Source: an uncultured Candidatus Saccharibacteria bacterium (GTDB lineage: Bacteria > Patescibacteriota > Minisyncoccia > UBA6257 > WO2-44-18). From it: a DNA stretch of 46,897 nucleotides. Under the pieces are notes generated by a model. The model was given only the letters and a program-made list of their open reading frames with translations, was not told the DNA's origin and did no database searches. The stretch is from contig CAYHXN010000003.1 in the NCBI GenBank assembly GCA_964360605.1, positions 1 through 46,897 on the forward strand, written 5' to 3'. Positions 12,285-34,900 of the stretch are shown one piece after another (position 1 is the first letter of the stretch; every line of letters begins with the position of its first letter). Both the position numbers and the translations under genes were made by a program.

Positions 12285-12962
12285 TTAATTATGTATTTCC
12301 AAAAATTTTTCGTAATCTTTTTGGCTTATAAATTTATATTTTCTTAAAAGCTCCAGTTTTTTTGAGAAAACTTCCCCAAGATCCCGGAACTTCATTCCTG
12401 ACGATCTTAGTAGGTCGTCAAAATCCGACCAAGAATTCGGGTCTAGAGACGAATAGATTGCCGCTACCCAAGTCGCGATATCTTCAAGCTTATGAGTCCC
12501 GCCATAGATGCTGATCACGCCTCTTTCTATCAGCGATTCTTTTCGCGATACCGTCTTGCTTACTTCTAGCCAATCCTTATAAAAATCGCCGCCCAAATGT
12601 ATCAAATGGAATGTATAAGCGTGGGCAGCTTCATGCCAAATAGTTTTCTTACATAAAGGCGCGGTTTTTAAACAAATGATTCCCGTGTAGTTATGACAGT
12701 GAGCCCATTCACTTCCACTAATATGTTTTCCGTCATCGTTGAAAGCTATACATTCTATTGAAGCGATCATTTCCGGTGTCAGCCAATCCAAGGCCTCATC
12801 AATGAGTTTAATCATTCCGTCATCTAATTCTTTCGCTTCTTTTCCGTCGTATATCTGTCTTAAAACCACTCCGTGCCGAGATATTTTTTTGGAAATCGGC
12901 GGTAAAACGCAAGAAGAAAGAAGAAATAAAGAAAATATCCAAAGGCCTGCTCTCAATCGCAT
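12285..12962 (-). CDS. putative HExxH metallopeptidase lipoprotein, paralog B
   Basis: ATG at 12962 with an AGGAG SD. Lipobox-like LFLLSSC and an IWHEAAHA motif. Confidence 0.6.
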   Translation of the reverse strand: MRLRAGLWIFSLFLLSSCVLPPISKKISRHGVVLRQIYDGKEAKELDDGMIKLIDEALDWLTPEMIASIECIAFNDDGKHISGSEWAHCHNYTGIICLKTAPLCKKTIWHEAAHAYTFHLIHLGGDFYKDWLEVSKTVSRKESLIERGVISIYGGTHKLEDIATWVAAIYSSLDPNSWSDFDDLLRSSGMKFRDLGEVFSKKLELLRKYKFISQKDYEKFLEIHN

Positions 12963-13020
12963 CAGTCTCCTGTTTTGAAGTGCTAATTGTAATTGTAGCA
13001 CCTCTTGGGAATTAGGAATT

Positions 13021-13076
13021 GTCCCGCCGTTGGCGGGATCCCGCCTTCTTAAATGTTATCGGAAATGTGGCGGGAG
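13021..13076. repeat. CCCGCC/GGCGGG double-hairpin repeat, left copy (inverted relative to 24805-24860)
   Basis: 13021-13050 is the exact reverse complement of 24831-24860 (30/30). A 9-bp box GTGGCGGGA (13068-13076) lies at the same 17-nt spacing as TCCCGCCAC (24805-24813). Confidence 0.9.
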
Positions 13077-13077
13077 A

Positions 13078-13116
13078 AAATTAAAAATCCCTTGCGTAGC
13101 TATGCTACGCAAGGGA
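13078..13116 (-). terminator. strong intrinsic terminator of the left GC-rich gene
   Basis: 13-bp perfect stem TCCCTTGCGTAGC-tat-GCTACGCAAGGGA, followed on the minus strand by TTTTTAATTTT. Confidence 0.8.
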
Positions 13117-13153
13117 TTAGGAATCTAGGGGCCAGGAAACCAGGGGGCTGAAG

Positions 13154-13753
13154 CTACTTGCGATAACGAAGGAGACGATCGTCGGAGCCCCAGTCGTCCC
13201 CGAGCCAGTAGAAGCCCAGATACCACCGGTCGCCATCCCAGTCGAGGTACGAGACGTAGCGGCTGCCGCTCCCGCCCTGCCAGACCGTTCCGGGGAAGAC
13301 GATGCAATACACACCTTTCGGAGGAATCCAGTTCCTGTACTTATTAAGAAAGGCGTCGGCGTACTTCTGACCCTTGTCGGCATGCATCTTGATGGCGCGG
13401 ATGAGCATTTCCTCTCCGCCAACTCGAGACTCGCCCGAGTTGAGGAACTCACAGAGCTCCAACTCTACCTTGCCGGGCTGGAGACTCTGGTCGCTGTCGC
13501 TGAGCAACTTCAGGTCAAAACGCTGGGCCTCTTTGGCAACGAACGAGCTGACTGGATCAATAGTGAGGGTGAAGGTCGGTATGGGCGGCTTAAGGCCGCA
13601 GACCCGGCGGTAATCTTCGCGGTTGATTTTTGAAATATTGGCATCACGAAGGTCCGTAAGAAGCCCTGATCCTAAAATGGCCTGAATCTGTTCGTTCGGC
13701 GTTTCTTTAAATAGTTCAAGGATTTTTGCCGCTTGGTTCAGGGTTGCCGTCAT
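13154..13753 (-). CDS. hypothetical protein encoded by a GC-rich (about 60%) cassette
   Basis: Track ORF 13154-13768. The ATG at 13753 is preferred (GAAAGGA SD 6 nt upstream). Own promoter and terminator. No family recognised. Confidence 0.6.
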   Translation of the reverse strand: MTATLNQAAKILELFKETPNEQIQAILGSGLLTDLRDANISKINREDYRRVCGLKPPIPTFTLTIDPVSSFVAKEAQRFDLKLLSDSDQSLQPGKVELELCEFLNSGESRVGGEEMLIRAIKMHADKGQKYADAFLNKYRNWIPPKGVYCIVFPGTVWQGGSGSRYVSYLDWDGDRWYLGFYWLGDDWGSDDRLLRYRK

Positions 13754-13836
13754 GGCAAGTCCTTTCAAAATAGGCGTCGCTTTAATTACCGGAACAGCCG
13801 GAAATCAAGCGGGCCTGATTAAAGATTCTGTTGCAA

Positions 13837-13865
13837 ATTATATATTAAATTTTTATTTTTGTCAA
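13837..13865 (-). promoter_or_regulatory. perfect consensus sigma70 promoter TTGACA-N17-TATAAT
   Basis: The minus strand reads TTGACAAAAATAAAAATTTAATATATAAT. It drives the GC-rich gene through a leader of about 77 nt. Confidence 0.7.
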
Positions 13866-13923
13866 CAGATTCAACCGCAAGTTCAAGAGACGCGAGTTTA
13901 TTTTAAAGAAAAATGTATCGGAG

Positions 13924-14012
13924 GCGCGCTGGCTTGGTGTTCAATGTAATTGAACCAGCGCGCTGAGATAAAAGTGGTATAGCGCCGCTGGAGCGCTATG
14001 ACCACGCTTTTT
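13924..14012 (+). other. two tandem GC-rich hairpins, the second followed by a T tract (orphan terminator or small RNA 3' end)
   Basis: Hairpin 1: GCGCGCTGG..GTTCAAT-gta-ATTGAAC-CCAGCGCGC (13924-13963). Hairpin 2: GTGGTATAGCGC-N7-GCGCTATgACCAC (13975-14005), then GCTTTTTCTT. Confidence 0.45.
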
Positions 14013-14053
14013 CTTAAAATAAACGAGCGGTAATTTGACAATTCTTAATTTTA

Positions 14054-14305
14054 AGTGTGAAACATTGTAAAAAGTGTGAAACATTGATTTTATATTACCC
14101 TTAAAAGCTAAAAAATGTTTCACGTGAAACATTGCATTAAGGACTTTGTTAAACTTATAACAAATGTTTGTCGGCAAACACTTTAATAAAAATCATCTGT
14201 ATACTGTAAAGATGTTTGCCGTGAAACATCGCATTAAATTGTTTCACGTGAAACAATTTGTAAAAAATAAGCTTAATGGACTAGAATATGTTTGTCGGCA
14301 AACAT
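14054..14305. repeat. intergenic cluster of ATGTTT-N6-AAACAT palindromes and GTGAAACATTG half sites
   Basis: Half sites at 14054-14067 and 14073-14086. 18-mers at 14115-14132, 14164-14181, 14212-14229, 14239-14256 and 14288-14305. Confidence 0.85.
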
Positions 14306-14306
14306 T

Positions 14307-14765
14307 ATGAAAAATACAAGCGCAACAGGTCAAATAGGCGAAGATTTAGCCTGCGATTATCTAATCGAAAAAGGTTATTCGGTTATTGAACGCAATTTCC
14401 GCCAAAAATGGGGCGAGTTGGATATTATTGCTAAAGCACCAGACGAAACTCTAGTTTTTGTTGAGGTTAAAACAATGCGGTCCCGATTCTCGACGCAGTC
14501 GGAATCGAAGATCCTCGATTCGGCAAACCCGAATCGGGACAATCCGGCAACTTGTGGTGAGCCGAGCCGAACCATTGCCGAATTATTGCCGGAAGATAAC
14601 TTAACTAAGTCAAAATTAATTAAAGTCAAAAGAACCGCAGAGATGTTTGCCGGCAAACATTCCGAACTTATAAATGAGGATAAGGGGTTGCGAATTGACC
14701 TTATTGCGATAACAATGTTTGCCGGCAAACATCCGCAAATTAATCACTACGAAAATATTTTCTAA
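14307..14765 (+). CDS. yraN: YraN-family (UPF0102) endonuclease-like protein with an internal insertion
   Basis: GEDLACDYLIEKGYSVIERNFRQKWGELDIIA...VFVEVKT...RIDLIAI matches the YraN pattern. The ATG at 14307 is preferred over the TTG at 14292. Confidence 0.75.
   Translation: MKNTSATGQIGEDLACDYLIEKGYSVIERNFRQKWGELDIIAKAPDETLVFVEVKTMRSRFSTQSESKILDSANPNRDNPATCGEPSRTIAELLPEDNLTKSKLIKVKRTAEMFAGKHSELINEDKGLRIDLIAITMFAGKHPQINHYENIF
14643..14660. repeat. perfect 18-bp palindrome ATGTTTGCCGGCAAACAT inside yraN
   Basis: In frame; encodes MFAGKH. Confidence 0.9.
14715..14732. repeat. second identical 18-bp palindrome inside yraN
   Basis: In frame; encodes MFAGKH again. Confidence 0.9.
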
Positions 14766-14827
14766 TAATTTGAAATTTATTAGATAATCTGGAATACTAA
14801 AATAGAAATTCTTTGACAAGGTAAACT

Positions 14828-15532
14828 GTGAAACGTCTTGCGGTCTTTTTTCTGGCATCTCTCTTTCTTTGTTCCTGCGGAGTAGCTGAAAAGAAAGTCG
14901 TTAGTGAACACATTCGGTACGCGACGAACGCTACCGCGGAACAAAAACTGGTGATTGACGAAGCGCTGGCTTGGCTAGCTCCCGATGTTCAAAAGTCTGT
15001 TATAGCTATAGAGATAAATAACAATGTAATTCATTTTCTGTCTACGGTAGTAGACGGGGGATTCGCGGCGGCACATTTGTGCCCGTATAATATGGAAAAG
15101 ATATGTATTCGTCCGGAATTTCTTGACGCAGATTTGATATGGCACGAAGCTGGCCATACTCATTTTTTCAAAAAAGATATCCTGCATTATTGGAATGAGT
15201 GGATTAAAATCGCCGGCGATACCTACTTAAAAGGAACTAAAAAGTATTCTGATTATTTACTCGCGTATCCCAAAGACGGAATCCTCACCGCTTATGGCGC
15301 GGTGAACTTTTTAGAAGATTACGCGGTGTGGGTAGAAAAAGTGGTTGAATATGACTATAATTATGGAGCTTCCGGCCGCGATCATTTTGACAATGTTTTT
15401 TCCAAAGTGCGCGGTTCTAAAAATCCGATATATTTAAAAAAACTTAAGTTTCTTTTAGACGGTGGCGCGATTTCTCAACGGCAATATGAAAGAGTAAAGG
15501 TAATTCTCGAAATTAAAAAATCCCCGAAGTAG
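14828..15532 (+). CDS. putative HExxH metallopeptidase lipoprotein, paralog C
   Basis: GTG start with an AAGG SD. Lipobox-like LFLCSCG and an IWHEAGHTH motif. Confidence 0.6.
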   Translation: MKRLAVFFLASLFLCSCGVAEKKVVSEHIRYATNATAEQKLVIDEALAWLAPDVQKSVIAIEINNNVIHFLSTVVDGGFAAAHLCPYNMEKICIRPEFLDADLIWHEAGHTHFFKKDILHYWNEWIKIAGDTYLKGTKKYSDYLLAYPKDGILTAYGAVNFLEDYAVWVEKVVEYDYNYGASGRDHFDNVFSKVRGSKNPIYLKKLKFLLDGGAISQRQYERVKVILEIKKSPK

Positions 15533-15547
15533 GGGATTTGTTTTTTT
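15521..15547. terminator. bidirectional hairpin terminator
   Basis: TCCCC-gaagta-GGGGA, then TTTGTTTTTTT. A run of As precedes it on the other side. Lies between convergent genes. Confidence 0.65.
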
Positions 15548-15869
15548 ATTGTTCTTTTTTCAACTTGTAACGGATGAGAGCATGGAACTGAAAGCCGGTA
15601 GGGAACACTGGCTCGTAGACTTCAGCGAAACGATCTTTGTTTTCTTTTTTCCATTTTTCCATTTCCTTCAACGTTTTTTCAATATCGCTTTGCGTGTCCG
15701 GGCAGGTAAACACTTTCCATTGGTATTCGGTACTTTGGTCTTGAATAATTGATGCTTCTGCCCTAAGCGCAACAGAGCTTGATCCAATACCCCAAGCCAT
15801 TATTCCAAACAACACCGCCAAAATAATAAAAACACCGATAGCGGATGTAAGTGTAACTTCTTCCTTCAC
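15546..15869 (-). CDS. hypothetical single-pass membrane protein
   Basis: Track ORF extends to 15914 (TTG). The GTG at 15869 is preferred because of the AAAGGTGG SD. The start remains uncertain. Confidence 0.5.
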   Translation of the reverse strand: MKEEVTLTSAIGVFIILAVLFGIMAWGIGSSSVALRAEASIIQDQSTEYQWKVFTCPDTQSDIEKTLKEMEKWKKENKDRFAEVYEPVFPTGFQFHALIRYKLKKEQ

Positions 15870-16017
15870 AAACCACCTTTTAAATTTCCGTATATAAATA
15901 TATATGGAACTCAAGATAATTCAAGTAGCCCCAGCGGGGTTTTCTAACACAATCAAAACTGATTATTTCTTAGATTGGAAAATTTATATTGCGCGGAAGA
16001 ACCCGAAAAAAACTTTG

Positions 16018-16088
16018 TGCCCCCACAAGGAATCGAACCTTGGTCAATTGCTTAAGAGGCAACTGCTTTACCATTAAGCTATGGGGGC
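16018..16088 (-). tRNA. tRNA-Lys (anticodon CTT), no encoded CCA
   Basis: Manual cloverleaf: GCCCCCA / D arm GCTT-AATGGTA-AAGC / GTTGC-CTCTTAA-GCAAT / CAAGG-TTCGATT-CCTTG / TGGGGGC-A. Confidence 0.88.
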
Positions 16089-16119
16089 AATCTGTGGATA
16101 ACCTATTTTATATTAATTT

Positions 16120-16388
16120 AGAATCCATCTCAATAATACTCTCTGACGCGATACTAGCCAATTTTATTCAGAACAAGACAGGAGGAGAAAACTGTGCTTT
16201 CAGCACGTTGACGACAACTAACGAAGTTATGGATAAAATTAGCTGTATCCCGAAGGGTTGCGGTCTAAATAGCCGAATCTCTGCGTCGCTCTTCCTCAAT
16301 GAAGCACCTGCTTTATTTCGTCATCGCTCCTTTATCTCGGCTATTTATTCTCGCAACGCGTCTGTGAATTATTATTGAGATGGATTCT
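16120..16388. other. 269-bp noncoding element closed by perfect 19-bp inverted repeats (structured RNA or MITE-like)
   Basis: AGAATCCATCTCAATAATA (16120-16138) against TATTATTGAGATGGATTCT (16370-16388). A second closing helix GACGCG (16145-16150) / CGCGTC (16357-16362). Confidence 0.6.
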
Positions 16389-16410
16389 GATATACTTAAA
16401 AGTATACGAA

Positions 16411-16593
16411 ATGACTAAGAATTTTCTGTTGGTAATTGTAATCGCGGCAGTTGTCGTCGGGGCGGCTATCGGCGGTTACATTTACTGGAAAAAATATCGC
16501 GGCGGAGGCTCGCCGGTTTCCGATAAACTCTTAAAAGAACTATATACGCCCATCAACATTCCGACGAATCCGTTAGAAAACATTAATAAATAA
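16411..16593 (+). CDS. small single-pass membrane protein with an NP-motif tail
   Basis: MTKNFLLVIVIAAVVVGAAIGGYIYWKK... ends in TNPLENINK. Start trimmed to the ATG at 16411. Confidence 0.5.
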   Translation: MTKNFLLVIVIAAVVVGAAIGGYIYWKKYRGGGSPVSDKLLKELYTPINIPTNPLENINK

Positions 16594-16599
16594 TTAAGT

Positions 16600-16818
16600 A
16601 TGAAAAAAAATATTTGGATTGTTATCGCTGTTATAATTGCTGTTGCGGTAGCTGCTTATTTGTATTTCAAGACGACCGAGAAAAAGGGCGCTGTAGGAAC
16701 CGCAGAGGAAGTAAGCGAAGCCGTTCCCAAAATTACTACCAATCCCGGAGCAGAAGTGCCAGAAATTAATCCGATTGATAGAGCCAATCCTTTCAAATAC
16801 CAAAATCCTCTTAGATAA
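16600..16818 (+). CDS. small single-pass membrane protein, paralog-like to the previous ORF
   Basis: MKKNIWIVIAVIIAVAVAAYLYFK... TNPGAEVPEINPIDRANPFKYQNPLR. Its stop is 1 nt before the next start. Confidence 0.55.
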   Translation: MKKNIWIVIAVIIAVAVAAYLYFKTTEKKGAVGTAEEVSEAVPKITTNPGAEVPEINPIDRANPFKYQNPLR

Positions 16819-16819
16819 A

Positions 16820-19800
16820 ATGATAACTAATATATTAAATAGAAAGATAAGCAATAAAATACTGGCAGGCATTATTTTGCTATTGGGAGTTCTTATAAGC
16901 TTTTCAATTATTCAAGTTCAGGCCGCTACCAATGATTCTGTAATTAGTTTTAAAAAAGATCCGACTTCTAATCTTTTTACGCTAACTATAAAAGATCCGG
17001 ATGGAATACAAGAGTTCTCCTTGAGTCCGGTGGGAAAGTTTCCCTACGGCGGGGGACTAAGCGGTTGTCCCAAAACATTCAGCATCAATAACACCTCCTT
17101 TGCCAACCCCGATGATTTTACTCCGGTAATGCCGGCATATATTATTGATTGCAAAAACAACACTCTGAATCTGGAAATTCCACCGCCTGAAGATGGTGTA
17201 ACTAAGAGTCGGGCTATTCAAAAAGAGGAACCGCTACCGCCCCCTCCACTGCCGCCACAAAAACCCAAAGAAGAAAAACCAGCGGAAGAGCGCACTCTTA
17301 GCGACGTACAATATCCAGTTAAGGACTTGGGTGATTGTCAAAACGAAGCAGAATGCCGCAGTTACTGCGATAATTCCGAACACACCAAAGAATGTTTGGC
17401 TTTTGCTAAAAAATACAATCTTTTATCTGACGAGGAAATTAAAGAAGTAACTGATGAGTTTTTAAACGTTAAAAATGGTCCCGGCGGATGCAATTCGGGG
17501 ACTTCCTGTGAGGCTTATTGCAGTAATATTGATCACTTAGACGAATGCATCACTTTTGCGGAAGAAACCGGTTATTATTCTGGCGATGAACTTGCTGAAG
17601 CCCGAAAATTCCAGGCTCTGGTAAAAAGCGGCAAGCAATTCCCGGGCGATTGCAAAGACAGAAATACTTGCGAAATTTATTGCGGCGATTCAAGCCACAT
17701 GGAAGAATGTTTGGATTTTGCGGAAGAAACCGGATTTATGTCACAAGAAGAAATTGATCAGGCAAGAAAAGTCATGCCTTTGATGCAACGCGGCGAAACA
17801 CCCGGGGGATGTAATTCTAAAGAGCAATGCGAAAAGTATTGCTTTGAAGAAGAACATCTTGAGGAATGTATCGCTTTTGCTGACAAAGCCGGACTTCTTT
17901 CCGATGAAGAAAGGGAAATGATTAAAAAAACCGGCGGTAAAGGACCCGGTGGTTGCCGCAGTAAAGATCAGTGCGAATCTTATTGCGAAGCCAACCAAGA
18001 AGAGTGCTTCAATTGGGCGATTGAAAATGACTTGATGAGCGAGACTGATTTACAAAAAATGCGCGAGGGCATGACTCGCTTTAAAGAAGAGTTGGATAAA
18101 ATTCCGCCAGAGGTTGTTCAGTGTCTTAAAGACGCCATTGGAGAAGAAAATTTCAACAGATTGGCAAATGGGCAGCCGGTATTTGATCGCAGTATGGAAA
18201 GCAAAATGAAATCCTGCTTCAACCAAATAACTTCCCAATTGAGTGGACAACTTAATGCTCTTCCACCGGAAGCAGCCGAGTGCATCAAGAACACTATCGG
18301 TGAAGATGGTCTGGAAAAACTCCAAAGTGGGGAATTTGATGAGGATGTGGATTTCCATAGTTTAGAAAGTTGTTTCCAACAATTGCAAACTTCATTTGGC
18401 GGACCGGGCGCTTTTGGAGGACCGGGTGGTTGTCAATCTGAAGAAGAATGCCAAGCTTATTGCGAATCTAACCAAGAAGAATGTCAGGAGTTTGGACCGC
18501 CAGGCGGCGGCGGTTTACCCGGTGGTCCGGGCGGTTTTTCCGGCCCAGGAGGATGTAATTCAATTGAGTCATGTACTGCTTTTTGCCAAGAAGATCCCGA
18601 GGAGTGCCAAAACTTTACTCCTCCGGATGAAGGTCCGGGCGGTGGATTCCCGGGCGGTCCGGGTGGCTGCACTAGCCAAGAAGAATGCCAAGAATACTGT
18701 CAAGAACACCCTACTGAATGCGAAGGTGAAAGAAATAACAATGATACCGAAAGCGAGGAAGAATTCTCGGCCTGTGTTCGTGATGGTATGGCAGAGGAGT
18801 ATGTTTGCGGAATAAATGGTAGGGGCGCTGAACCCGGAATTGAAACAACTTACTTTAATGAGTGCCACGCGAAACAACATGACGTGCAAATTCTCCATGA
18901 TGGTATTTGTAAAAATCATAAACCTTGTTCAGATATTGCTCACCCTGTTTGCGGTAGAGACAACGGAACTTATGTGGCCGAATGTTACGCTAAGGAAAAT
19001 GGCACGGAGGTGAAGCACGAGGGCGTTTGCACGAACGAAGATTTTGACGGGAATGTTCCGAGTGAATGCACGAATCAGGAAGAATGTCAGGCTTATTGTC
19101 AAACCCATTACACCGATCCTGCCTGCGGTGGTACGCCGCCGTCTCCAACTCAAAGTTGCGCTCCACTACCTTCCGGCTTAGTCAGTTGGTTGGACGATGA
19201 TACTTTATCAGATGCTAGCGGTGGCGGCGTCACTCTTGCTCCAGGAAAAGTCGGGCAGGCGTTAAAGTTTGACGGAGTCGGCGGATACGTTAACGATGAA
19301 AATCCTGCGAATTTAAATTTTGGAGCTGGACCGTTTTCCTTAGAGGCTTGGATTAATTGGGATGGCGGCGGATCCTCTAAGGGTAATATCATCAGAAAAT
19401 CAAATTATCCCGTAAGCGGCGATGGAGCGGGTTATTGGCTGATTATAGGTAAAGATAATAGTATATTAGAATTTTTTGCAGGAGAAACTGTTGGCAACGC
19501 GGGCAAATCTAGAGGAAGGGTTTCTGCGCCGATAAGTTCAGGAACTTGGTATTACGTCGCTGCCACAAGAAATAGTTCCGGCTTAATGAGTCTGTACATA
19601 GATGGCCAATTAAAAGGTACTGCCGAAGCCGCAGGCGCTAACACAACTAGCGAAGCTCCGTTCACGCTTGGAGCGTGGGATGATCGATTCGGCATTACAG
19701 AGATGTTCTCGGGCTTGATTGATGAAGTTTCCGTATACAATAAATCACTAAGCACGTCAGAAATTCAAGCTATTTTCAATGCGGGCAACGCCGGTAAGTG

Positions 19801-20056
19801 CTCTAATGAATCGCAACAACAATATCCAGTTCCAGATCAAAATCAATATCAGGAAAAATATCAAAAACAATACGAAGAACAATATCAGCAATACCAACAA
19901 TACCCGACCGGCCCCTCTAATTACCCAACGTCTCCGGAAGAATATTGCAAACAATATCCGGAAAAATGCCAGGGCTATCCGCCCCAATCACGATTGAATC
20001 CGCCAGCACTAGGAGAATTATCGGTTGGATTACTCTTAAACTTTTTGGAAAGATAA
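16820..20056 (+). CDS. large secreted/surface protein: about nine CxxxxxCxxYC..EC repeats, two Kazal-like domains, a LamG/ConA-like domain and a Q/Y-rich tail
   Basis: Signal-like N-terminus (ILAGIILLLGVLISFSIIQVQA). Repeats of the type PGGCNSxxxCExYCxxxxHxEECxxFA. Kazal-like PVCGRDNGTYVAECYA...GVC. LamG-like GQALKFDG...FSLEAWINW...LYIDG...IDEVSVYNKSLS. Confidence 0.85.
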   Translation: MITNILNRKISNKILAGIILLLGVLISFSIIQVQAATNDSVISFKKDPTSNLFTLTIKDPDGIQEFSLSPVGKFPYGGGLSGCPKTFSINNTSFANPDDFTPVMPAYIIDCKNNTLNLEIPPPEDGVTKSRAIQKEEPLPPPPLPPQKPKEEKPAEERTLSDVQYPVKDLGDCQNEAECRSYCDNSEHTKECLAFAKKYNLLSDEEIKEVTDEFLNVKNGPGGCNSGTSCEAYCSNIDHLDECITFAEETGYYSGDELAEARKFQALVKSGKQFPGDCKDRNTCEIYCGDSSHMEECLDFAEETGFMSQEEIDQARKVMPLMQRGETPGGCNSKEQCEKYCFEEEHLEECIAFADKAGLLSDEEREMIKKTGGKGPGGCRSKDQCESYCEANQEECFNWAIENDLMSETDLQKMREGMTRFKEELDKIPPEVVQCLKDAIGEENFNRLANGQPVFDRSMESKMKSCFNQITSQLSGQLNALPPEAAECIKNTIGEDGLEKLQSGEFDEDVDFHSLESCFQQLQTSFGGPGAFGGPGGCQSEEECQAYCESNQEECQEFGPPGGGGLPGGPGGFSGPGGCNSIESCTAFCQEDPEECQNFTPPDEGPGGGFPGGPGGCTSQEECQEYCQEHPTECEGERNNNDTESEEEFSACVRDGMAEEYVCGINGRGAEPGIETTYFNECHAKQHDVQILHDGICKNHKPCSDIAHPVCGRDNGTYVAECYAKENGTEVKHEGVCTNEDFDGNVPSECTNQEECQAYCQTHYTDPACGGTPPSPTQSCAPLPSGLVSWLDDDTLSDASGGGVTLAPGKVGQALKFDGVGGYVNDENPANLNFGAGPFSLEAWINWDGGGSSKGNIIRKSNYPVSGDGAGYWLIIGKDNSILEFFAGETVGNAGKSRGRVSAPISSGTWYYVAATRNSSGLMSLYIDGQLKGTAEAAGANTTSEAPFTLGAWDDRFGITEMFSGLIDEVSVYNKSLSTSEIQAIFNAGNAGKCSNESQQQYPVPDQNQYQEKYQKQYEEQYQQYQQYPTGPSNYPTSPEEYCKQYPEKCQGYPPQSRLNPPALGELSVGLLLNFLER

Positions 20057-20060
20057 ACTT

Positions 20061-20098
20061 AAAACCTCCTTAATGTTACATCGGGGAGGTTTTATTTT
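20061..20098 (+). terminator. intrinsic terminator after the large surface protein gene
   Basis: AAAACCTCC-loop-GGAGGTTTT followed by ATTTTGT. Confidence 0.65.
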
Positions 20099-20099
20099 G

Positions 20100-20171
20100 T
20101 GCCCTCGCCCCGACTCGAACGGGGAATAACAGGTTCGAAGCCTGTCGTGATATCCATTTCACCACGAGGGC
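20100..20171 (-). tRNA. tRNA-Arg (anticodon TCG), no encoded CCA
   Basis: Manual cloverleaf: GCCCTCG / ACAGG-CTTCGAA-CCTGT / CCCCG-TTCGAGT-CGGGG / CGAGGGC-A. Confidence 0.88.
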
Positions 20172-20246
20172 AATATCGCTTATTATAATATAGTAAAGAT
20201 GGAAAAATTTGAAGCTAGTTTTTCGCCAGAAGAAAAATAAAGGTTT

Positions 20247-21806
20247 ATGGAAATTCCTAAAGAAATAGAATCCGTCAGTAAAAAAATCGCCGAAGCGGGC
20301 TTTGAGTCCTATTTAGTGGGCGGATGTGTCCGGGATTATTTATTGGATAAAAAACCCAAAGATTGGGATTTTACCACCAATGCCAAGCCGGAAGAAATTT
20401 TAAAAATTTTTCCCGATAGCGTTTATGAAAATCAATTCGGCACCGTCGGCGTTAAAACCCGATCAGAAAATTCCGCCACGGCTTTAGTGGAAGTTACGAC
20501 TTTCCGTAAAGAAGGAAAATACACTGACAAACGGCATCCCGATGAAATAACTTTCGCCAAAACCGTTGAGGAAGATCTTTCACGAAGAGATTTTACGGTG
20601 AACGCGATAGCTATAGAGTTAACAAGCGACCACCGCCAAGGCGGGGCAGGCAAGCGACAAGCGACAAGTAATAAAACCCGCGCCCATGTCGCTACGCCCA
20701 TGTCGCTGATTGACCCGTTTGGCGGGCAAAAAGATTTGGAGAAAAAAATCATCCGCGCGGTGGGAAACGCTGATGAAAGATTTAAAGAAGACGCCCTCCG
20801 ATTGATGCGCGCTGTTCGTTTTTCCGCCCAATTAGGTTTTGAAATTGAAAAAGATACCGCCAGCGCCGCGGAAAAAAATGCTGGTCTTTTGGAATTTATC
20901 GCTAAAGAACGGATTGCCGAGGAACTTTCTAAATTATTAATGACCGAAAATGCCGCCGATGGCATCCGCAGAATGTCCAAACTGGGACTATTAAAATATG
21001 TTGTTCCGGAATTAGAAGAAGGCGTGGAGATGGAGCAAAATAAGCACCATATTTACACGGTTTTTGAACACAATGTTCGGGCGCTGGACTATGCCGCCCA
21101 ACAAAATTTTCCGCTGGAATTGCGAATCGCTTCATTGCTCCACGACGTTGGAAAGCCTCGGACTCGCGTTTTTAAATCTGACTCGCGCGGCGCCAAAACT
21201 TATCGGGGCAAAAAAGGCGATTGGACTTTCTACCAACACCAGTATGCTGGCGAAAAAATGGCGGTGGAAATTCTGGACCGCCTGAAATTTCCTAAAAAAA
21301 TGATTGAAGAAATCGCCCTTTTAGTTCGCGAACACATGTTTGTTTATGACCCGGAGTTAGTTACGGAAAAAGGAGTGCGCCGATTGGTAAATCGCGTGGG
21401 ACCAGAAAATATTGATAATTTATTTTCCGTTCGCGAAGCCGACCGGATTGGTTCCGGAGTCGCCAAGGCCGTTCCTTACCGCCTGCGGCACCTCAAAGCA
21501 ATGATTGAAAAAGTGAAAAAAGATCCGATCAGCGTCAAAATGTTGAAGGTGAACGGTAATGATGTAATCAAAGAATTAAAAATTGAACCCGGTCCGAAGG
21601 TTGGCCAGATTTTGAGTATTTTATTGGAGGAAACTTTAGATAATCCGAAGTTAAACGAAAAAGAAAAATTAATCAAAAAAATTCATGAATTAAACAAGTT
21701 CTCGGAAAAAGAACTACAAAAAATGATGGCAGCCGCGAAAAAGAAAGCGGCGAATGTCCAAAAAAGAATTGACGAAGAGGTAATGAAGAAGTATTTTGTG
21801 AAGTAA
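20247..21806 (+). CDS. cca: CCA-adding tRNA nucleotidyltransferase with an HD domain
   Basis: GGCVRDYLL, DWDFTT and RRDFTVNA head-domain motifs, an HD region (LLHDVGKP), and a C-terminal extension. Confidence 0.85.
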   Translation: MEIPKEIESVSKKIAEAGFESYLVGGCVRDYLLDKKPKDWDFTTNAKPEEILKIFPDSVYENQFGTVGVKTRSENSATALVEVTTFRKEGKYTDKRHPDEITFAKTVEEDLSRRDFTVNAIAIELTSDHRQGGAGKRQATSNKTRAHVATPMSLIDPFGGQKDLEKKIIRAVGNADERFKEDALRLMRAVRFSAQLGFEIEKDTASAAEKNAGLLEFIAKERIAEELSKLLMTENAADGIRRMSKLGLLKYVVPELEEGVEMEQNKHHIYTVFEHNVRALDYAAQQNFPLELRIASLLHDVGKPRTRVFKSDSRGAKTYRGKKGDWTFYQHQYAGEKMAVEILDRLKFPKKMIEEIALLVREHMFVYDPELVTEKGVRRLVNRVGPENIDNLFSVREADRIGSGVAKAVPYRLRHLKAMIEKVKKDPISVKMLKVNGNDVIKELKIEPGPKVGQILSILLEETLDNPKLNEKEKLIKKIHELNKFSEKELQKMMAAAKKKAANVQKRIDEEVMKKYFVK

Positions 21807-21811
21807 TACTA

Positions 21812-21882
21812 CGGAGCGTAGTGTAATGGCAGCACGAGTCCTTCGGGAGGATTTAGTCGCGGTTCAAATCCGCGCGCTCCGA
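21812..21882 (+). tRNA. tRNA-Pro (anticodon CGG), no encoded CCA
   Basis: Manual cloverleaf: CGGAGCG / AGTCC-TTCGGGA-GGATT / CGCGG-TTCAAAT-CCGCG / CGCTCCG-A. C1-G72 is typical of bacterial tRNA-Pro. Confidence 0.88.
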
Positions 21883-21943
21883 CAGTTAGGTACAAAGTTC
21901 GAATCCTGGGCAACCGACTCCGGCATGATACACTAAAGAATAA

Positions 21944-22801
21944 ATGCCGGGGGTTCAATGCCGCAACTGTAAGAAAATTTTTTTTAAATCCCGAAATAGA
22001 TTTAATGAGAATAAAAAATTGGGATATAATTTTTATTGCTCGATTTTTTGCCAAGGCAAATCATTTAGAAGACGATCGGAATTTATTTGTGAAAATACAA
22101 AGTGTAGAAAAAAATTTGAAAAATTAAGAAAAGAAATTGGCCCGCACAACTATTGTTCCACAAGCTGTGCGGCGATTGTCAACAATCAGAAATTCCCTAA
22201 ATGGAGACCGAAATTAAAGTTGTGTAAGGTATGCGAAAAACAATTTAGGGGCGGTAATAAATATTGTTCCATTCCTTGCTACAAACAATCCCGTGTAAGA
22301 CATGAACCAGACGACTTACTTAAACAGATAAAGTTTGTCTATAAAAAATTCGGTCGGGTTCCGGCAAGACGGGAAGTTCCTAATATAGACGGCGCTTGCA
22401 GATATGCCTTTGGCACATGGAATAATGCCATTGTCGCTGCCGGCTTAACTCCCAATCGTTCTCACGAAAATAGAATGTATAAACGCACTATAACTAAAGC
22501 TAAGGATGGCCATTTTTGCGACTCTATTTCTGAGGCTCTTATTGATAATTGGCTCGAAGAACGCAATATTAAACATGAGAAAAATGTTAAATATCCTAAT
22601 AGTGGGCACGTAGCAGATTGGAAAGTAGGAAATTTTTTTGTTGAATACTTCGGTTTAGCTAAAGATAGTCCTAGGTATGATAGAAACGTGAAAATCAAAC
22701 AAAAACTTTGTAAAAGATCTGGAATAAAATTAATTGAAATCTATCCCACAGATCTATATCCTAAATTAAACTTGAGTGCTAAATTGCGAAGTTTTTTCTA
22801 A
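21944..22801 (+). CDS. multi-CxxC protein with a C-terminal endonuclease-like region (weak resemblance to Vsr/PD-(D/E)xK; possibly homing-endonuclease related)
   Basis: Four or more CxxC pairs at the N-terminus. Middle segment FGRVPARREV..ACRYAFGTWNNAIVAAGL. C-terminal SISEALIDNWLEERNIKHEKNVKYP..ADWKVGNFFVEYFG. Assignment by eye only. Confidence 0.5.
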   Translation: MPGVQCRNCKKIFFKSRNRFNENKKLGYNFYCSIFCQGKSFRRRSEFICENTKCRKKFEKLRKEIGPHNYCSTSCAAIVNNQKFPKWRPKLKLCKVCEKQFRGGNKYCSIPCYKQSRVRHEPDDLLKQIKFVYKKFGRVPARREVPNIDGACRYAFGTWNNAIVAAGLTPNRSHENRMYKRTITKAKDGHFCDSISEALIDNWLEERNIKHEKNVKYPNSGHVADWKVGNFFVEYFGLAKDSPRYDRNVKIKQKLCKRSGIKLIEIYPTDLYPKLNLSAKLRSFF

Positions 22802-22813
22802 TTCCTATCAGCC

Positions 22814-22840
22814 CGACAAAAAAACCGCCGGTGGGCGGTT
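22814..22840 (-). terminator. hairpin terminator
   Basis: AACCGCC-ggtg-GGCGGTT followed on the minus strand by TTTTTGTC. Confidence 0.6.
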
Positions 22841-22849
22841 CAATGCGGG

Positions 22850-23467
22850 TTACTCAATAGTTTTTATTCTGAAAAGGAGATAGGCGGATGCTCTTTCCGG
22901 CTGGGAATTTAAAGGACTTATTTTCTGACTAAAGAAGTAATAGGTTTCGTTAGTCCAGTATATGACTTGGTCAAAGTATTTCCTTATAATCCTTTTGCTA
23001 GTAACCTTATAAAGAAAAAGGTAGTTCTGGAGAGAGCTGTCGTTATCAAGTATCGGGTCTTTCATAAAATCTAAATTGAATTTTTCATCAATAGAAAAGT
23101 CCGGACGATTTAAAAAATTCTTAAGTTTTAAAAATCTTATTCCGCTTTTTATCAGTTCCATGACTTCTGAATCGGTAAGCGGGATTCCTTTATCCAAAGA
23201 ATTAAAAATTAAAACTTCCGTGTCTAAAATTTCTATATTTAAAAGCACTGCCTGCTCAAAAATTTCCTCGCGCTGGCTTTCGGGAAGCTCCATTATGGCC
23301 TGATAAAATCCTTCTTCGCTATTATATTTATTTTTTACAACATTAACTTCAGCTTGATTTCCAGAAAAAGAATAAAGGCCGTAAAGGTTGTATAAGAAAA
23401 AGCTAAGAGAAAAAATAAAAGCTATAAACAAAACCGCGGTCAGAATATTTTTGGCCACCGCTTCCAC
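22850..23467 (-). CDS. hypothetical membrane-anchored protein
   Basis: Track ORF with an N-terminal TM helix. No motif recognised. Confidence 0.5.
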   Translation of the reverse strand: MEAVAKNILTAVLFIAFIFSLSFFLYNLYGLYSFSGNQAEVNVVKNKYNSEEGFYQAIMELPESQREEIFEQAVLLNIEILDTEVLIFNSLDKGIPLTDSEVMELIKSGIRFLKLKNFLNRPDFSIDEKFNLDFMKDPILDNDSSLQNYLFLYKVTSKRIIRKYFDQVIYWTNETYYFFSQKISPLNSQPERASAYLLFRIKTIE

Positions 23468-23496
23468 TTTGAAACAGCTAAGGTTAGAATAGGAAA

Positions 23497-23823
23497 ATGA
23501 AATTTATTTTTCAAGACCCGCGAAAAAACAAGAATTTGCCGGCGCGACTTCGGGAAGCGGGGTACCGATTTGAAAGGCAGGCAAGCCCGGAAGAAATGGT
23601 TTTCATAAAAGGTTTTGAGGGAGCGGATTTTCCCCGCTGGCATCTTTACGCCAAGGAAATTTCCGGCAGCTGGGAATTGAATCTTCACTTGGACCAGAAG
23701 CGTCCGATTTATCGCGGCACATCCGCTCATGGAGGAGAATACGAGGGGCCGTTGGTAAAAAAAGAGTTACAACGCCTTCAAAATATTTTAAATCCGTTGC
23801 CGGATTTAGAAATTACGGAATAG
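23497..23823 (+). CDS. hypothetical 108-aa protein
   Basis: Track ORF. No motif recognised. Confidence 0.45.
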   Translation: MKFIFQDPRKNKNLPARLREAGYRFERQASPEEMVFIKGFEGADFPRWHLYAKEISGSWELNLHLDQKRPIYRGTSAHGGEYEGPLVKKELQRLQNILNPLPDLEITE

Positions 23824-23844
23824 ATCTAACGAAAATACGCCCTA

Positions 23845-23872
23845 TTGACAAATTCTGTGGGGTTGCTATAAT
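23845..23872 (+). promoter_or_regulatory. near-consensus sigma70 promoter TTGACA-N16-TATAAT
   Basis: TTGACA at 23845-23850 and TATAAT at 23867-23872. A leader of about 105 nt runs to the 23984 ATG. Confidence 0.65.
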
Positions 23873-23983
23873 GGGCGCAGAACCTAAATAATACACGCTC
23901 GTTAGTATTGGAGTGGCTTTAAGGTAGGGCATAAGCCTTGCCGCCCTCTAAGCGAGTGACGTTTACCAAAGAAGGAGAGACCT

Positions 23984-24712
23984 ATGAAGGTACCCGAAGT
24001 CAATCCGACCCCTTTCGACCCGGACATGACGATGGCTCTGGAGGAAATGGGTCAGCGGGGCTTCTCTTTGGAGCCCAAAGAGGGCTTCCAAGTGCGGCGG
24101 ACAAGCGTCGCCGCCCACAACTGGCTCAGGACCCAGAAGCTGGGAAGAGATTGGGCCACTCGTGACTCGATCCTCTGGAATGTCCTGATCCTCATGGCCT
24201 GCAAGGCTAAGGGTCGGACCATCAATCTGGAAGAGGTCAAGGGACTTTACCTCCAGCGCTCGGCCGCGCTCGACAAACAGAAAGTCGAGCACGACGAAAT
24301 GGTTCAGCGACGACCGGACCCGGACGCCGGAGACGGCGAGGTCACCTGCACCGTGACGGACCGAAAGTTCGTCCCGATGGTCTGGAACCGGACCGTGGAC
24401 GGAAAAGTTCTCCTCCACGAGAACGGCCCCCGACAGGGTGAGCCGAAGCTCGGGGGAAACTTCCTGCCCTCCAAGGACGGGGAGCCGAAGCCGATCAGCC
24501 GCGAAGGCCTCAATCAGATCAACGACGAGCTGATGAAGAGGGAAGAACCTCGGGAGAGGTCGTTCTCCTACTCGGAGGCGAAACATCTCTCCGCTGGCCA
24601 CGTCGAGCGCAAAGCTCGCGTGGAGAAGGTCGTCGGTTTCATCCCGGAGCGGAAGCGCCGGGGCGATGGCGGCTACCAGGGCGATTCCCGGTCTACGCGG
24701 CACATCCGCTAG
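23984..24712 (+). CDS. hypothetical protein encoded by a GC-rich (about 60-70%) cassette
   Basis: GAAGGAGAG SD 4 nt upstream of the ATG. Own promoter and terminator. The antisense ORF 23963-24703 is judged a GC-rich shadow. Confidence 0.6.
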   Translation: MKVPEVNPTPFDPDMTMALEEMGQRGFSLEPKEGFQVRRTSVAAHNWLRTQKLGRDWATRDSILWNVLILMACKAKGRTINLEEVKGLYLQRSAALDKQKVEHDEMVQRRPDPDAGDGEVTCTVTDRKFVPMVWNRTVDGKVLLHENGPRQGEPKLGGNFLPSKDGEPKPISREGLNQINDELMKREEPRERSFSYSEAKHLSAGHVERKARVEKVVGFIPERKRRGDGGYQGDSRSTRHIR

Positions 24713-24730
24713 TAGCCCAAAACAACAATG

Positions 24731-24765
24731 CCCCGTCCGTCAACCGACGGACGGGGCCTCTTTTT
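24731..24765 (+). terminator. strong intrinsic terminator of the right GC-rich gene
   Basis: 11-bp stem CCCCGTCCGTC-aacc-GACGGACGGGG, then CCTCTTTTT. Confidence 0.8.
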
Positions 24766-24804
24766 AAAATTTAAAACGGAGAACTTGGCCCTTGATTCAT
24801 GATT

Positions 24805-24860
24805 TCCCGCCACCGATTCAATAATTTTTCAGAAGGCGGGATCCCGCCAACGGCGGGACA
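24805..24860. repeat. CCCGCC/GGCGGG double-hairpin repeat, right copy
   Basis: TCCCGCCAC-N17-AGAAGGCGGGATCCCGCCAACGGCGGGACA. Its reverse complement matches 13021-13076 (30-bp and 9-bp perfect blocks). Confidence 0.9.
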
Positions 24861-24961
24861 TACTTCATGATTCCAGAGCTAAGTCCTTCGACAACTAAAT
24901 AAGCGCCTAGCTATCGTCTGAGCTAGGCTAGCCCAAGAAGGACGTTTTAAAAGGAGTTCTT

Positions 24962-34807: not shown

Positions 34808-34823
34808 AATTAAGGAATGACTC

Positions 34824-34900
34824 CCCGCCGATGGCGGGATGCTCATGTTTGTGGCTAAATTTTAGAGCTACACATGAGCCCTAAAATTTAGACAAACATG
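34824..34900 (+). promoter_or_regulatory. structured intergenic RNA with mutually exclusive helices; one sequesters the next start codon
   Basis: CCCGCC-gat-GGCGGG (34824-34838). GCTCATGT (34841-48) / ACATGAGC (34872-79), versus CATGTTTGTggCTAAATTTTAG (34844-65) / CTAAAATTTAGACAAACATG (34881-34900). Confidence 0.5.

Follow-up and report, generated by a model that had tools for sequence, protein, structure and literature searches.

The longest inverted repeat in a 46.9-kb stretch of DNA from an uncultured Saccharibacteria bacterium of groundwater (here called the window; 46,897 nt) is formed by two copies of a 54-nt double hairpin, which probably arose when a small, non-autonomous mobile DNA element inserted twice, independently and in opposite orientations. 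The repeat would then have an ordinary cause, namely two copies of a dispersed small repeat, and would mark neither a cassette boundary nor an inversion switch. The family to which the copies belong joins traits that are usually found apart: REP-like hairpins, exact gain and loss that leave no target duplication, in-frame copies within housekeeping proteins as known from RPEs, a preference for tRNA-like hairpins and heptamer arrays, and a spread over CPR, Omnitrophota, Bacteroidota and other uncultured phyla. The literature searchable for the core sequence of the element or for its peptide gave no match, and the family is apparently undescribed so far.

A repeat search placed the arms at 13020-13084 and 24796-24860 (65 nt, 82% complementary). 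Within this imperfect repeat sits a perfect 30-mer, AGAAGGCGGGATCCCGCCAACGGCGGGACA, which by direct reading occupies 24831-24860 and is the exact reverse complement of 13020-13049. The perfect 30-bp inverted repeat of the original prediction is thus real and its right arm was correctly placed, but the left arm had been shifted by +1: the left 30-mer had been put at 13021-13050, and the 9-bp box GTGGCGGGA, which does exist, lies at 13067-13075 and not at 13068-13076. The sequence GGCGGGATCCCGCC occurs twice in the window against 0.07 occurrences expected, and a pattern search of the window for CCCGCCNNNGGCGGG returned positions 13023, 24843 and 34824, plus one site with a single mismatch at 744. 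When the left and right regions were compared by blastn, a unit of ~70 nt was the only sequence that they shared, and a search with a family model found two full copies in the 46.9 kb (Table 1). The gene context described earlier, in which each copy follows the terminator of a GC-rich gene and precedes the next gene in the same direction, also held, although its distances needed correction: the element begins 78 nt (left copy) or 92 nt (right copy) after the gene stop and 10 or 47 nt, respectively, after the end of the terminator stem, and is followed by the next start codon at 59 nt (left, start at 12962) or 103 nt (right, start at 24962). Of the two GC-rich genes, one has a DGR target gene as a homologue.

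The element uses one heptamer four times (TCCCGCC / GGCGGGA / TCCCGCC / GGCGGGA), in the order TCCCGCC-23 nt-GGCGGGA/TCCCGCC-AAC-GGCGGGA, so that two 7-bp hairpins abut at the junction GGATCC, the first with an AT-rich loop of 23 nt and the second with a loop of 3 nt. DNA folding of the right copy gave these two hairpins at -15.2 kcal/mol (z = -4.1), and the left copy equaled it in fold and energy. Only the hairpin half is identical between the window copies because their loops differ, which assigns them to different subfamilies; the right-copy spacer is identical to that of a different locus (L136). The ends TCCCGCC…GGCGGGA are terminal inverted repeats that are invariant in 30 copies, and all four boxes agreed in 25 of 26 copies although the search had left them unconstrained, while the loop varies. 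As a consequence of this invariance, the stems give no compensatory-change support within the class, and a double-stranded DNA binding site would fit equally well. Stem variants do exist, in which either all four boxes are changed together or the two hairpins differ. The element carries no gene. At the left copy, homology to a relative (L157) ends at 13077, at the element boundary; at the right copy, the CA that opens the 3' flank completes the 30-mer but is target sequence and lies outside the element.

Table 1. Positions in the window of the two element copies, their target flanks and a single hairpin
Feature	Position	Strand	Sequence and evidence
Right copy, 54-nt element	24805..24858	+	TCCCGCC-ACCGATTCAATAATTTTTCAGAA-GGCGGGA/TCCCGCC-AAC-GGCGGGA; cmsearch with family model, 73.7 bits, E=1e-20
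Left copy, 54-nt element	13022..13075	-	Spacer ACATTTCCGATAACATTTAAGAA, other subfamily; cmsearch, 68.7 bits, E=4e-19
5' target flank, right copy	24790..24804	+	Heptamer-like …GATT CATGATT^; contiguous with 3' flank in the empty site of L118
3' target flank, right copy	24859..24873	+	^CATACTT CATGATT C; empty site of L118 keeps CATACTTCATGATTC
3' target flank, left copy	13007..13021	-	^CAATTCC TAATTCC C; direct reading and flank statistics
Single hairpin	34821..34840	+	CCCCGCC-gat-GGCGGGA, between two genes; pattern match; weak partial match to family model, 16.6 bits, E~0.002

Evidence for mobility came from a related contig (L118) in which the gene, terminator and flanks are as in the window and exactly the 54 nt are absent (GATT^CATAC, with the caret at the junction). 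Global alignment of window positions 24730-24905 with L118 produced one clean 54-nt gap exactly opposite the right copy and a second gap, of 31 nt, opposite a different double hairpin that is present in L118 only; with both gaps removed, 102 of 135 columns were identical. There is no target-site duplication in this empty site, which is contiguous, nor at the insert in the HppA protein gene described below, which is exactly 48 nt (16 aa), nor in tRNA-Thr copies carrying the element, which read GCGCATC^CATGG. Filled and empty sites differ by one exact 54-nt block, and the target is not duplicated. The L118 difference could be an insertion in the window lineage or an excision in L118, with mobility implied either way. 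The precise empty site, additional loci in the same aquifer metagenome and the wide family together support the REP/MITE-like mobile unit that had been among the roles first suggested.

The flanks of 30 unique family copies carry T at position -2 in 25 cases and A at +2 in 28, and the joined flanks show autocorrelation at lags of 7 (0.43) and 14 (0.42), compared with 0.26 in controls. The insertion sites have the form T-N^N-A, and most often they separate two tandem heptamers (…CAAATTC^CAAATTC…) or fall within the loops of T-arm-like hairpins (GGTTC^GAAnCC). The 5' flank reads TTC^ in 9 of 32 copies, a loose motif, and the copies show a bias in how they are oriented to the asymmetric heptamer CAAATTC. 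Eight of 72 copies lie no more than 120 nt from a tRNA gene (1.5% expected; p=1e-5), and in silico deletion of the element from two loci (L015 and L084) restored a tRNA-Ser.

In genomes other than that of the window, where both copies are intergenic, the element is also found inside protein genes. The 48-nt Omnitrophota version lies in frame within unrelated proteins, and the peptide SRPxIxxSGGIPPEAG is read in the same frame in at least six unrelated proteins; HppA, ABC-F, NusB-like and DUF72-like proteins are among those that carry the element peptide. Relative to the window's own HppA, an Omnitrophota HppA has an exact in-frame insert of 16 aa (48 nt), and an ABC-F protein has ~16 to 17 additional residues at the element relative to Escherichia coli YheS.

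Across the family, the core motif is present at >113 genome loci in many phyla, element size ranges from 31 to 57 nt, and the same architecture was seen in MAGs of Doudna-, Uhr-, Harrison- and Saccharibacteria, Omnitrophota, Bacteroidota, Zixibacteria, WOR-3 and Elusimicrobia. Further copies from the same aquifer samples lie at other loci, namely L136, L138 (three loop differences), L142 and L149, while the version in the Bacteroidota genome MAG197, TCCCGCCtttGGCGGGATCCCGCCaaaGGCGGGA, occupies at least 17 loci and resembles a REP doublet. Comparison of neighbors across family loci revealed no recurrent protein family beside the element, and orientation to flanking genes was mixed. The link to GC-rich genes is not general: most members do not adjoin such genes, and GC content upstream of the other family copies is not elevated. 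On the mobile-element reading, the position of both window copies after GC-rich genes is incidental. A generic REP scattered without relation to such genes, the outcome named in advance as refuting the original prediction, is essentially what was found, but the element is not high-copy in this genome. No Rfam family matched at its gathering threshold, and the one match over the element at E<=5, to mir-767, was rejected as meaningless (21 bits against a cut-off of more than 86 bits).

Four other explanations of the repeat were weighed against independent insertion. The four identical, palindromic half-sites, the invariance of the boxes beside a variable loop, and the placement of both copies shortly before a start codon in like orientation would suit a cis-acting operator or RNA element that co-regulates the genes at 12962 and 24962 through a dimeric or tetrameric regulator bound to TCCCGCC half-sites. 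However, copies in other genomes take either orientation to their neighbors and share no downstream gene family, some lie in frame within coding sequences or within tRNA copies, the two genes downstream in the window have no relation to each other, L118 manages without the element at the orthologous site, and Rfam offers no match. We consider the proposed regulator binding site unlikely because of the variable orientation to neighboring genes and the copies inside coding sequences. A recombinational switch, in which exchange between the two copies inverts the 11.7-kb segment that they enclose, could draw on 54 to 65 nt of inverted homology, including the perfect 30-mer, and the segment does start at a switch of gene strand. 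In principle the pair could serve as a substrate for inversion, but the arrangement of the window recurs in all four independent contigs that extend to a junction (two others end at the repeat), with no inverted isomer among the independent assemblies; the ORFs scanned in or near the segment include no invertase or recombinase; both copies belong to a dispersed family, in which they do not stand out; and a flip would set three tRNA genes and the gene for the CCA-adding enzyme against the direction of the genes to the right. A switch is accordingly very unlikely.

It is likewise very unlikely that the element is an attC-like 3' recombination site of mobile cassettes, in each of which it would close a unit that has a strong promoter, a GC-rich gene and a terminator; the original suggestion of a conserved cassette 3' end is not supported. 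Both copies do follow a gene of ~60% GC whose promoter is a 12/12 match to the consensus and whose terminator is strong, against a genomic GC content of 42%; in L118 the homologous gene is also followed by a double hairpin, one of another kind; and the element resembles attC in being an imperfect palindrome 3' of a gene that folds as single-stranded DNA. Against this, the homologue of the second gene in L118 lacks this element at the site, as do the regions downstream of the first gene's homologues in L122 to L127, and elsewhere the family sits beside ordinary genes, in ORFs and in tRNA-like sequences. The ORFs scanned showed no integron integrase, attI or cassette array, and the element has no conserved R'/R'' core (GTTRRRY/RYYYAAC); both upstream genes have consensus promoters of their own, whereas integron cassettes are promoterless, and the element is an indel by itself that comes and goes without the gene. 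That the repeat reflects misassembly or a chimera has almost no probability. Coverage is low (~3 to 4x), and in one sample two contigs are interrupted at the right copy (L120 stops within it and L129 begins just after it), but short-read assemblers are expected to break at a 30-nt exact repeat, and these two contigs are examples of how the element breaks such assemblies. Moreover, the window copies have different loops, and the independent assembly of a second sample has contigs that run through each copy into unique sequence at either side, in the window's arrangement (L130 the left copy, which is identical there, and L119/L128 the right), so the artefact that the original prediction had allowed for is not supported.

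Independent insertion of a mobile element invites comparison with known small repeats. REP/REPIN-RAYT units are similarly short, GC-rich palindromes (imperfect, 20 to 40 nt, often in inverted doublets), non-coding and dispersed, and move without target duplication. They differ in that the 5' GTAG tetranucleotide is absent from the element, the ends and flanks of 30 unique copies being TTC^T…A^CA, and in that REPs are high-copy and extragenic, whereas the element has two copies in 47 kb and its family also occupies ORFs and tRNA copies. No RAYT was seen in the window ORFs scanned or in the 8-kb family loci; RAYTs that accompany REPINs have been described mostly from Gammaproteobacteria and are not known from CPR or Omnitrophota. 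The element shares with the PATEs of IS200/IS605 and with IS91-type HUH elements the lack of terminal duplication and the hairpins at the ends; the favored but loose motif beside the insertion (TTC^, compared with GTTC/CTTG for IS91 and TTAC for IS608) and the orientation bias may be further points of likeness. Unlike these, it is far smaller (31 to 57 nt over the family), its ends are true inverted repeats at the hairpin feet rather than subterminal hairpins with offset cleavage, and the sole tnpA insertion sequence found has unrelated hairpins. Classical bacterial MITEs such as Correia, ERIC and RUP, a class derived from DDE transposons, are likewise small and non-autonomous with terminal inverted repeats, but the element makes no target-site duplication and is below the size of nearly all described MITEs; no parent insertion sequence with matching ends was found. 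The in-frame copies with a conserved peptide recall RPEs, palindromic repeats of ~100 to 150 bp that interrupt unrelated protein genes without shifting the frame and so appear in the proteins as a conserved peptide (PMC10969869, citing Ogata 2000 and 2002). RPEs are, however, confined to Rickettsia and three times larger than members of this family, which spans many phyla, including CPR and Omnitrophota; the likeness is one of descriptions, not of directly compared sequences, and implies no sequence similarity.

Movement of the element would presumably depend on an enzyme that works in trans, recognizes both structure and sequence, and acts on single-stranded DNA in its folded form. The hairpins at the ends, the absence of duplication, the short 5' motif TTC^ and the apparently fixed orientation to an asymmetric target point to an HUH nuclease (Y1/Y2; IS200/IS605-, IS91- or RAYT-like) as the most likely type. 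What counts against an HUH-type enzyme is that the element ends coincide with the hairpin feet, as judged from the L118 empty site, whereas cleavage sites in IS608-type elements lie 10 to 20 nt from the hairpins. The scanned window ORFs include no transposase, integrase or Y1 gene, and the only IS200-type tnpA in 1.1 Mb of flanking DNA (8-kb loci) belongs to an element with end hairpins unlike those described here. Any effect on neighboring genes, or inversion between copies, would be a side effect. A broader reading, which we put forward tentatively and regard as rather doubtful, is that there is an undescribed cross-phylum class of 31- to 57-nt insertion elements, built of two abutting one-heptamer hairpins, that insert without target duplication, keeping register in heptamer micro-arrays and reading frame in protein genes and also entering hairpins that resemble the tRNA T-loop, that extend essential proteins of CPR and Omnitrophota bacteria by short peptide loops, and that are moved by an enzyme or mechanism not linked to known transposon families. 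If the mobilizing enzyme were found, the element would rank among the smallest mobile DNA units known and could serve as a marker of recent genome change in unculturable organisms. The single hairpin listed in Table 1 may be related, as a solo form, to one of the element's two hairpins, or it may be unrelated.

The perfect 30-bp inverted repeat of the original prediction is present in the window: positions 24831-24860 (AGAAGGCGGGATCCCGCCAACGGCGGGACA) are the exact reverse complement of 13020-13049, the coordinates first given being correct for the right arm and one base off for the left. A repeat search returned the longest inverted repeat of the window at this place (arms at 13020-13084 and 24796-24860, 65 nt, 82% complementary), and the 14-mer GGCGGGATCCCGCC occurs twice, against 0.07 occurrences expected. 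When the left and right regions were compared by blastn, the repeat unit was the sole sequence that they shared. We conclude that the inverted repeat exists and that chance falls far short of explaining it. With a family covariance model trained on 30 unique copies, we found only two full copies of the element in the window, scoring 73.7 and 68.7 bits, and each of these, folded as single-stranded DNA, forms a pair of directly adjoining hairpins of 7 bp (-15.2 kcal/mol, z about -4). The single hairpin CCCGCCgatGGCGGG claimed at 34824-34838 was found there by pattern match and is a weak partial match to the model.

The repeat is no assembly artefact. The left copy is spanned by a contig from a second sample (L130, 9.5 kb), as is the right copy (L119/L128, 7.5 kb), in both cases with the order seen in the window; two contigs of the other sample end at the right copy, as expected for a 30-nt exact repeat. 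The suggestion that the repeats form an inversion switch was not borne out, since no inverted isomer was seen and no available contig joins the alternative partners. Read in the sense orientation, which is minus at the left copy and plus at the right, both loci run from a promoter through a GC-rich gene and its terminator to the repeat unit and the next gene.

Features of the element loci and of related loci
Feature	Contig or locus	Position	Strand
Element, left copy	window	13022-13075	-
Element, right copy	window	24805-24858	+
12/12 consensus promoter TTGACA-16/17-TATAAT, left locus	window	13865-13837	-
12/12 consensus promoter TTGACA-16/17-TATAAT, right locus	window	23845-23872	+
Gene 1, ~60% GC, with ribosome-binding site	window	13154-13753	-
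Gene 2, ~60% GC, with ribosome-binding site	window	23984-24712	+
Strong terminator hairpin, left locus	window	13118-13086	
Strong terminator hairpin, right locus	window	24730-24757	
Start of next gene, left locus	window	12962	
Start of next gene, right locus	window	24962	
Homologue of DGR variable region	window	13150-13286	
VR/TR copies, 137 nt each	L125	475-611 and 866-1002	
tRNA-Thr array	L021	1-880	
tRNA-Thr array	L031	2880-3190	
tRNA-Thr array	L080	1-175	
48-nt in-frame version, (F)SRPxIxxSGGIPPEAG(K) (Omnitrophota and others)	L008, L050, L096, L062, L094, L107, L067, L092		

Gene 2 is an ORFan with a single homologue among 5.8 billion proteins, P0002 (66% identity), which lies on a contig (L118) whose promoter, 5' leader, terminator and downstream flank match those of the window. 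In a global alignment of window 24730-24905 with L118, there are two clean gaps. L118 is without exactly the 54 nt from TCCCGCC to GGCGGGA and reads …GTGATT^CATACTTCATGATTC… (^, insertion point), with no duplication of target bases, and it alone carries a 31-nt double hairpin, TCCGCCggaGGCGGAaTCCTCCttcGGAGGA, directly after the terminator T-run (CTCTTTTT^AAAAT); outside both indels, 102 of 135 columns are identical. The two clean gaps imply that two related hairpin elements, no more than 60 nt apart, were gained or lost independently in two related lineages. The alignment also fixes the boundaries of the element and shows that the CA ending the 30-mer as first described is target sequence. The explanation of the inverted repeat is thus ordinary in kind, namely, two copies of a small mobile palindromic repeat, and we consider it probable that these are independent copies of a mobile double-hairpin insertion element. 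The element is a non-coding, non-autonomous insertion that is precisely bounded and leaves its target unduplicated; its preference among targets is loose but clear, and its 7-bp terminal inverted repeats double as hairpin stems.

An exact scan for GGCGGGATCCCGCCNNNGGCGGG over one genome per species returned at least 113 loci. Some matches, in coding sequence of high-GC actinomycetes, look like chance; among the matches listed, and with labels as listed, the remainder are mostly in low- to mid-GC MAGs. Carriers include Doudnabacteria (at least 5 MAGs), Uhrbacteria, Harrisonbacteria, Parcubacteria and Saccharibacteria; Omnitrophota, with 12 or more MAGs; a single Bacteroidota MAG in which 17 or more loci match; and WOR-3, Zixibacteria, Elusimicrobia/Endomicrobiia and others. 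Among the genomes rich in copies are Bacteroidota MAG197 (JBLMZS01), Omnitrophica GWF2_43_52 (MHGF01) and Doudnabacteria MFEY01. The complete four-box layout (TCCCGCC/GGCGGGA/TCCCGCC/GGCGGGA) was found at about 50 loci. The chief difference among these is in the first loop, which measures 3 nt in Bacteroidota, Zixibacteria and Elusimicrobia, about 11 nt in certain Uhrbacteria, about 17 nt in Omnitrophota and 22 to 26 nt in CPR, the class present in the window. More copies occur elsewhere in the same aquifer samples (L136, L138, L142 and L149), the contigs coming from the Hainich groundwater site, whose H51 samples underlie ERZ1292623 and ERZ1292627. The loop of the right copy is identical to that of L136 and differs at three positions from that of L138, and the loop of the left copy is different. 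The window copies therefore come from separate subfamilies, neither derived from the other, which is why perfect sharing is limited to the hairpin half. Copying of the loop from the local target was rejected, as a copy's own flanks are no more similar to it than the flanks of other copies (p=0.26).

In a metagenome scan with box 1 fixed and the central dinucleotides of boxes 2 to 4 free, all boxes were identical in 25 of 26 matches, the other having a single mismatch. The boxes are thus kept alike within a class, so that the stems give no evidence of compensatory change, and independent covariation of the second hairpin was rejected. A structure-only search of the fetched loci did find relatives with different stems, either altered in all four boxes (TCCGCC/GGCGGA in L084 and L088) or with two hairpins unlike each other (L047, L092 and L118); the common denominator is therefore hairpin formation together with TCC…GGA ends. 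Variant boxes of the family comprise TCCGCC, TCCTCC and TCCAGC. Rfam returned nothing at gathering or permissive thresholds and has no model for the element, and a structured RNA was rejected. Carriage by plasmids or phages was likewise rejected: the 54-mer has no match among PLSDB plasmids or INPHARED phages, and IMG/VR gave only four matching contigs, related to one another, in which an ORF contains a half unit of 24 nt. In these phage contigs (L114-L117), the half unit, GGCGGGATCCCGCCAATGGCGGGA, lies in frame in a conserved ORF and is read as GGGIPPMAG. Several Kitasatospora genomes (L027, L042, L055, L083 and L111) carry the core 23-mer with similar flanks, probably as a GC-rich hairpin or terminator that is peculiar to this genus and has no relation to the low-GC family.

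Among the 30 unique CPR-class copies, there is a T at -2 in 25 and an A at +2 in 28, and flanks joined without the element have an autocorrelation of 0.43 at lag 7 and 0.42 at lag 14, against 0.26 in controls. This periodicity places the element in register between tandem heptamers with the consensus CA(A/G)nTTC^CAAnTTC. Because the heptamers vary by locus and occur in the empty site of L118, they are target context and not a duplication made by insertion; a 7-bp target duplication is further contradicted by the 48-nt insert in HppA and by the equal lag-7 and lag-14 periodicity. Orientation on this asymmetric target is biased, the 3' flank starting with CA in 17 copies and the reverse signature (TTG in the 5' flank) occurring in 3. 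The arrays are genome specific (CAAATTC, CAGGTTA or CAAGATT, and AGTTCTC in the Bacteroidota loci L010 and L098), with examples at class-A copies in L037 (4429-4455), L079, L033 and L142. Those in the KsgA gene of the window (28986-29096) were judged to be ordinary coding sequence.

A subclass of the element lies in the loops of T-arm-like hairpins (GGTTC^GAAnCC). In-silico removal of the element from L015/L084 restored a tRNA-Ser(GCT), an intact duplicate of which lies 30 nt downstream, and in L021, L031 and L080, tRNA-Thr(GGT) copies adjoining an intact gene are split exactly at GCGCATC^CATGG. Of the 72 unique copies, 8 have a tRNA gene no more than 120 nt away, where 1.5% would be expected (p=1e-5). 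The simplest reading is that the element has a preference for TTC^NA within the loops of hairpins and that only insertions in dispensable tRNA copies survive. The split copies form tandem arrays of partial tRNA-Thr genes 3' of the intact tRNA-Thr(GGT) in Uhrbacteria and other Patescibacteria, the element splitting each copy. In L021, one interrupted copy is separated from the intact gene by a small ORF for a GIY-YIG nuclease, and additional array units decay into chains of related hairpins.

The 48-nt version of Omnitrophota keeps to a single reading frame across unrelated proteins (HppA, ABC-F, a protein of ~1085 aa, a DUF72-like protein and NusB), encoding the peptide SRPxIxxSGGIPPEAG, and the constancy of the frame implies selection for translatable insertions. 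Compared with HppA of the window, that of L008 has exactly 16 residues inserted between RRQF and (K/R)EI; the ABC-F protein has 16 to 17 residues more than Escherichia coli YheS at the element, and in the NusB homologue the element is situated in the N-terminal region. The 54-nt version is in frame in a Mur-ligase-like ORF of Saccharibacteria.

The original prediction also proposed that the unit is the 3' end of a mobile cassette, and both window copies do follow GC-rich genes. These have ~60% GC in a 42% GC genome, perfect 12/12 sigma-70 promoters and long conserved 5' leaders, and homologues in other CPR genomes keep the promoter and the GC excess (L118 ~95-123; L122 upstream of 758). Pfam gave no match for the protein of either window gene, and the two proteins are unrelated. 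The homologues of gene 1 likewise combine ~60% GC and consensus promoters, and in no case does the element follow them. These homologue loci, that of gene 2 in L118, and the GC profiles at 43 copies, in which upstream GC is not elevated as a rule, led us to reject a general tie to GC-rich upstream genes. The cassette reading is not supported. In L157, from a closer relative of the window organism (NusA 82% identical), only the last ~120 nt of gene 1 and the same terminator-like hairpin are retained (L157 4390-4568 versus window 13267-13077), the downstream lipoprotein gene (12285-12962) is missing, and homology ends at 13077, the element boundary. The remnant is fused to a homologue of window 14034-14085, and some 950 nt, comprising the promoter and the greater part of the gene, are absent. 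A link to a diversity-generating retroelement (DGR) has in its favor that the gene 1 protein is 55% identical to a Harrisonbacteria protein that is a DGR target in its own genome: a second copy of its last 137 nt, 86% identical, lies 391 nt downstream, adenines of this downstream (template) copy account for 16 of the 19 differences, and a reverse transcriptase and a weak bAvd match adjoin. The window has neither template repeat nor reverse transcriptase, gene 1 being an orphaned or remotely served DGR target, and we rejected the link because a reverse transcriptase lies near only one other copy of the element. That the element follows both GC-rich genes is most plausibly coincidental, or else reflects a preference for AT-rich, repeat-bearing post-terminator spacers.

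Nor did the neighborhoods of the element yield a mobilizing enzyme. No transposase or integrase was found among the window ORFs scanned, and when 1179 ORFs of the loci were clustered all against all, no neighboring protein family recurred, and a conserved neighbor gene or autonomous parent was rejected; the orientation of the element to its flanking genes is mixed. A Y1 search of 1.1 Mb of flanking DNA, with a profile seeded with an IS200 TnpA sequence, gave one Pfam-confirmed IS200-type tnpA gene, and an IS200/Y1 link was rejected because that IS bears unrelated end hairpins. By analogy with IS200/IS605, IS91 or REP/RAYT systems, the element is most likely mobilized in trans, while folded as single-stranded DNA, by an enzyme that recognizes structure, whether of HUH type or another; to the HUH mechanism specifically we give only a low probability.

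The element works similarly to REP/REPIN sequences but is without GTAG, is low in copy number and is not solely extragenic. It likewise resembles the IS200/IS605-derived PATEs but ends at the hairpin feet and has no matching IS found, and it is comparable with the Rickettsia palindromic elements, although it is one third their size and occurs in other hosts (PMC10969869). From classical MITEs it differs in making no target duplication, and from attC in having no integrase, attI or core sites. The searchable literature gave no match to the core 14-mer or the peptide and no paper on a CPR/Omnitrophota repeat. The family is moderately interesting in itself for its very small size, its precise gain and loss without target duplication and its spread over many uncultured phyla, and further for its in-frame occupation of essential proteins and its affinity for tRNA-like hairpins and heptamer arrays.

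Elsewhere, the window has housekeeping content (NusA, H+-pyrophosphatase, trigger factor, ClpP, TyrRS, CCA-adding enzyme, UvrD and KsgA), the closest named relatives of its NusA being from Parcubacteria, Harrisonbacteria and Patescibacteria. The 16-bp palindrome TGTTTSNCGNSAAACA occurs seven times within 14116-14731, against 0.04 expected; five copies are in a 520-nt divergent intergenic region and two, both read as MFAGKH, within a UPF0102 (YraN-like nuclease) ORF, and additional TGTGAAACA half-sites are at 14056-14086. The cluster lies at a gene-strand switch near the cumulative GC-skew minimum (~13 kb) and is a possible replication origin or operator array. A WHEAxH motif is present in two predicted lipoproteins that are paralogues (12285-12962, minus strand, and 14828-15532, plus strand; 27% identity, E=5e-17); they are encoded in inverted orientation to each other and bracket gene 1 and the UPF0102 gene. 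A 1093-aa protein (16775-20056, plus strand) contains Cys-rich repeats in its interior (direct-repeat families at 17801-19098) and carries a LamG/ConA-like domain at its C terminus; genes for tRNA-Lys and tRNA-Arg, both on the opposite strand, flank its gene.
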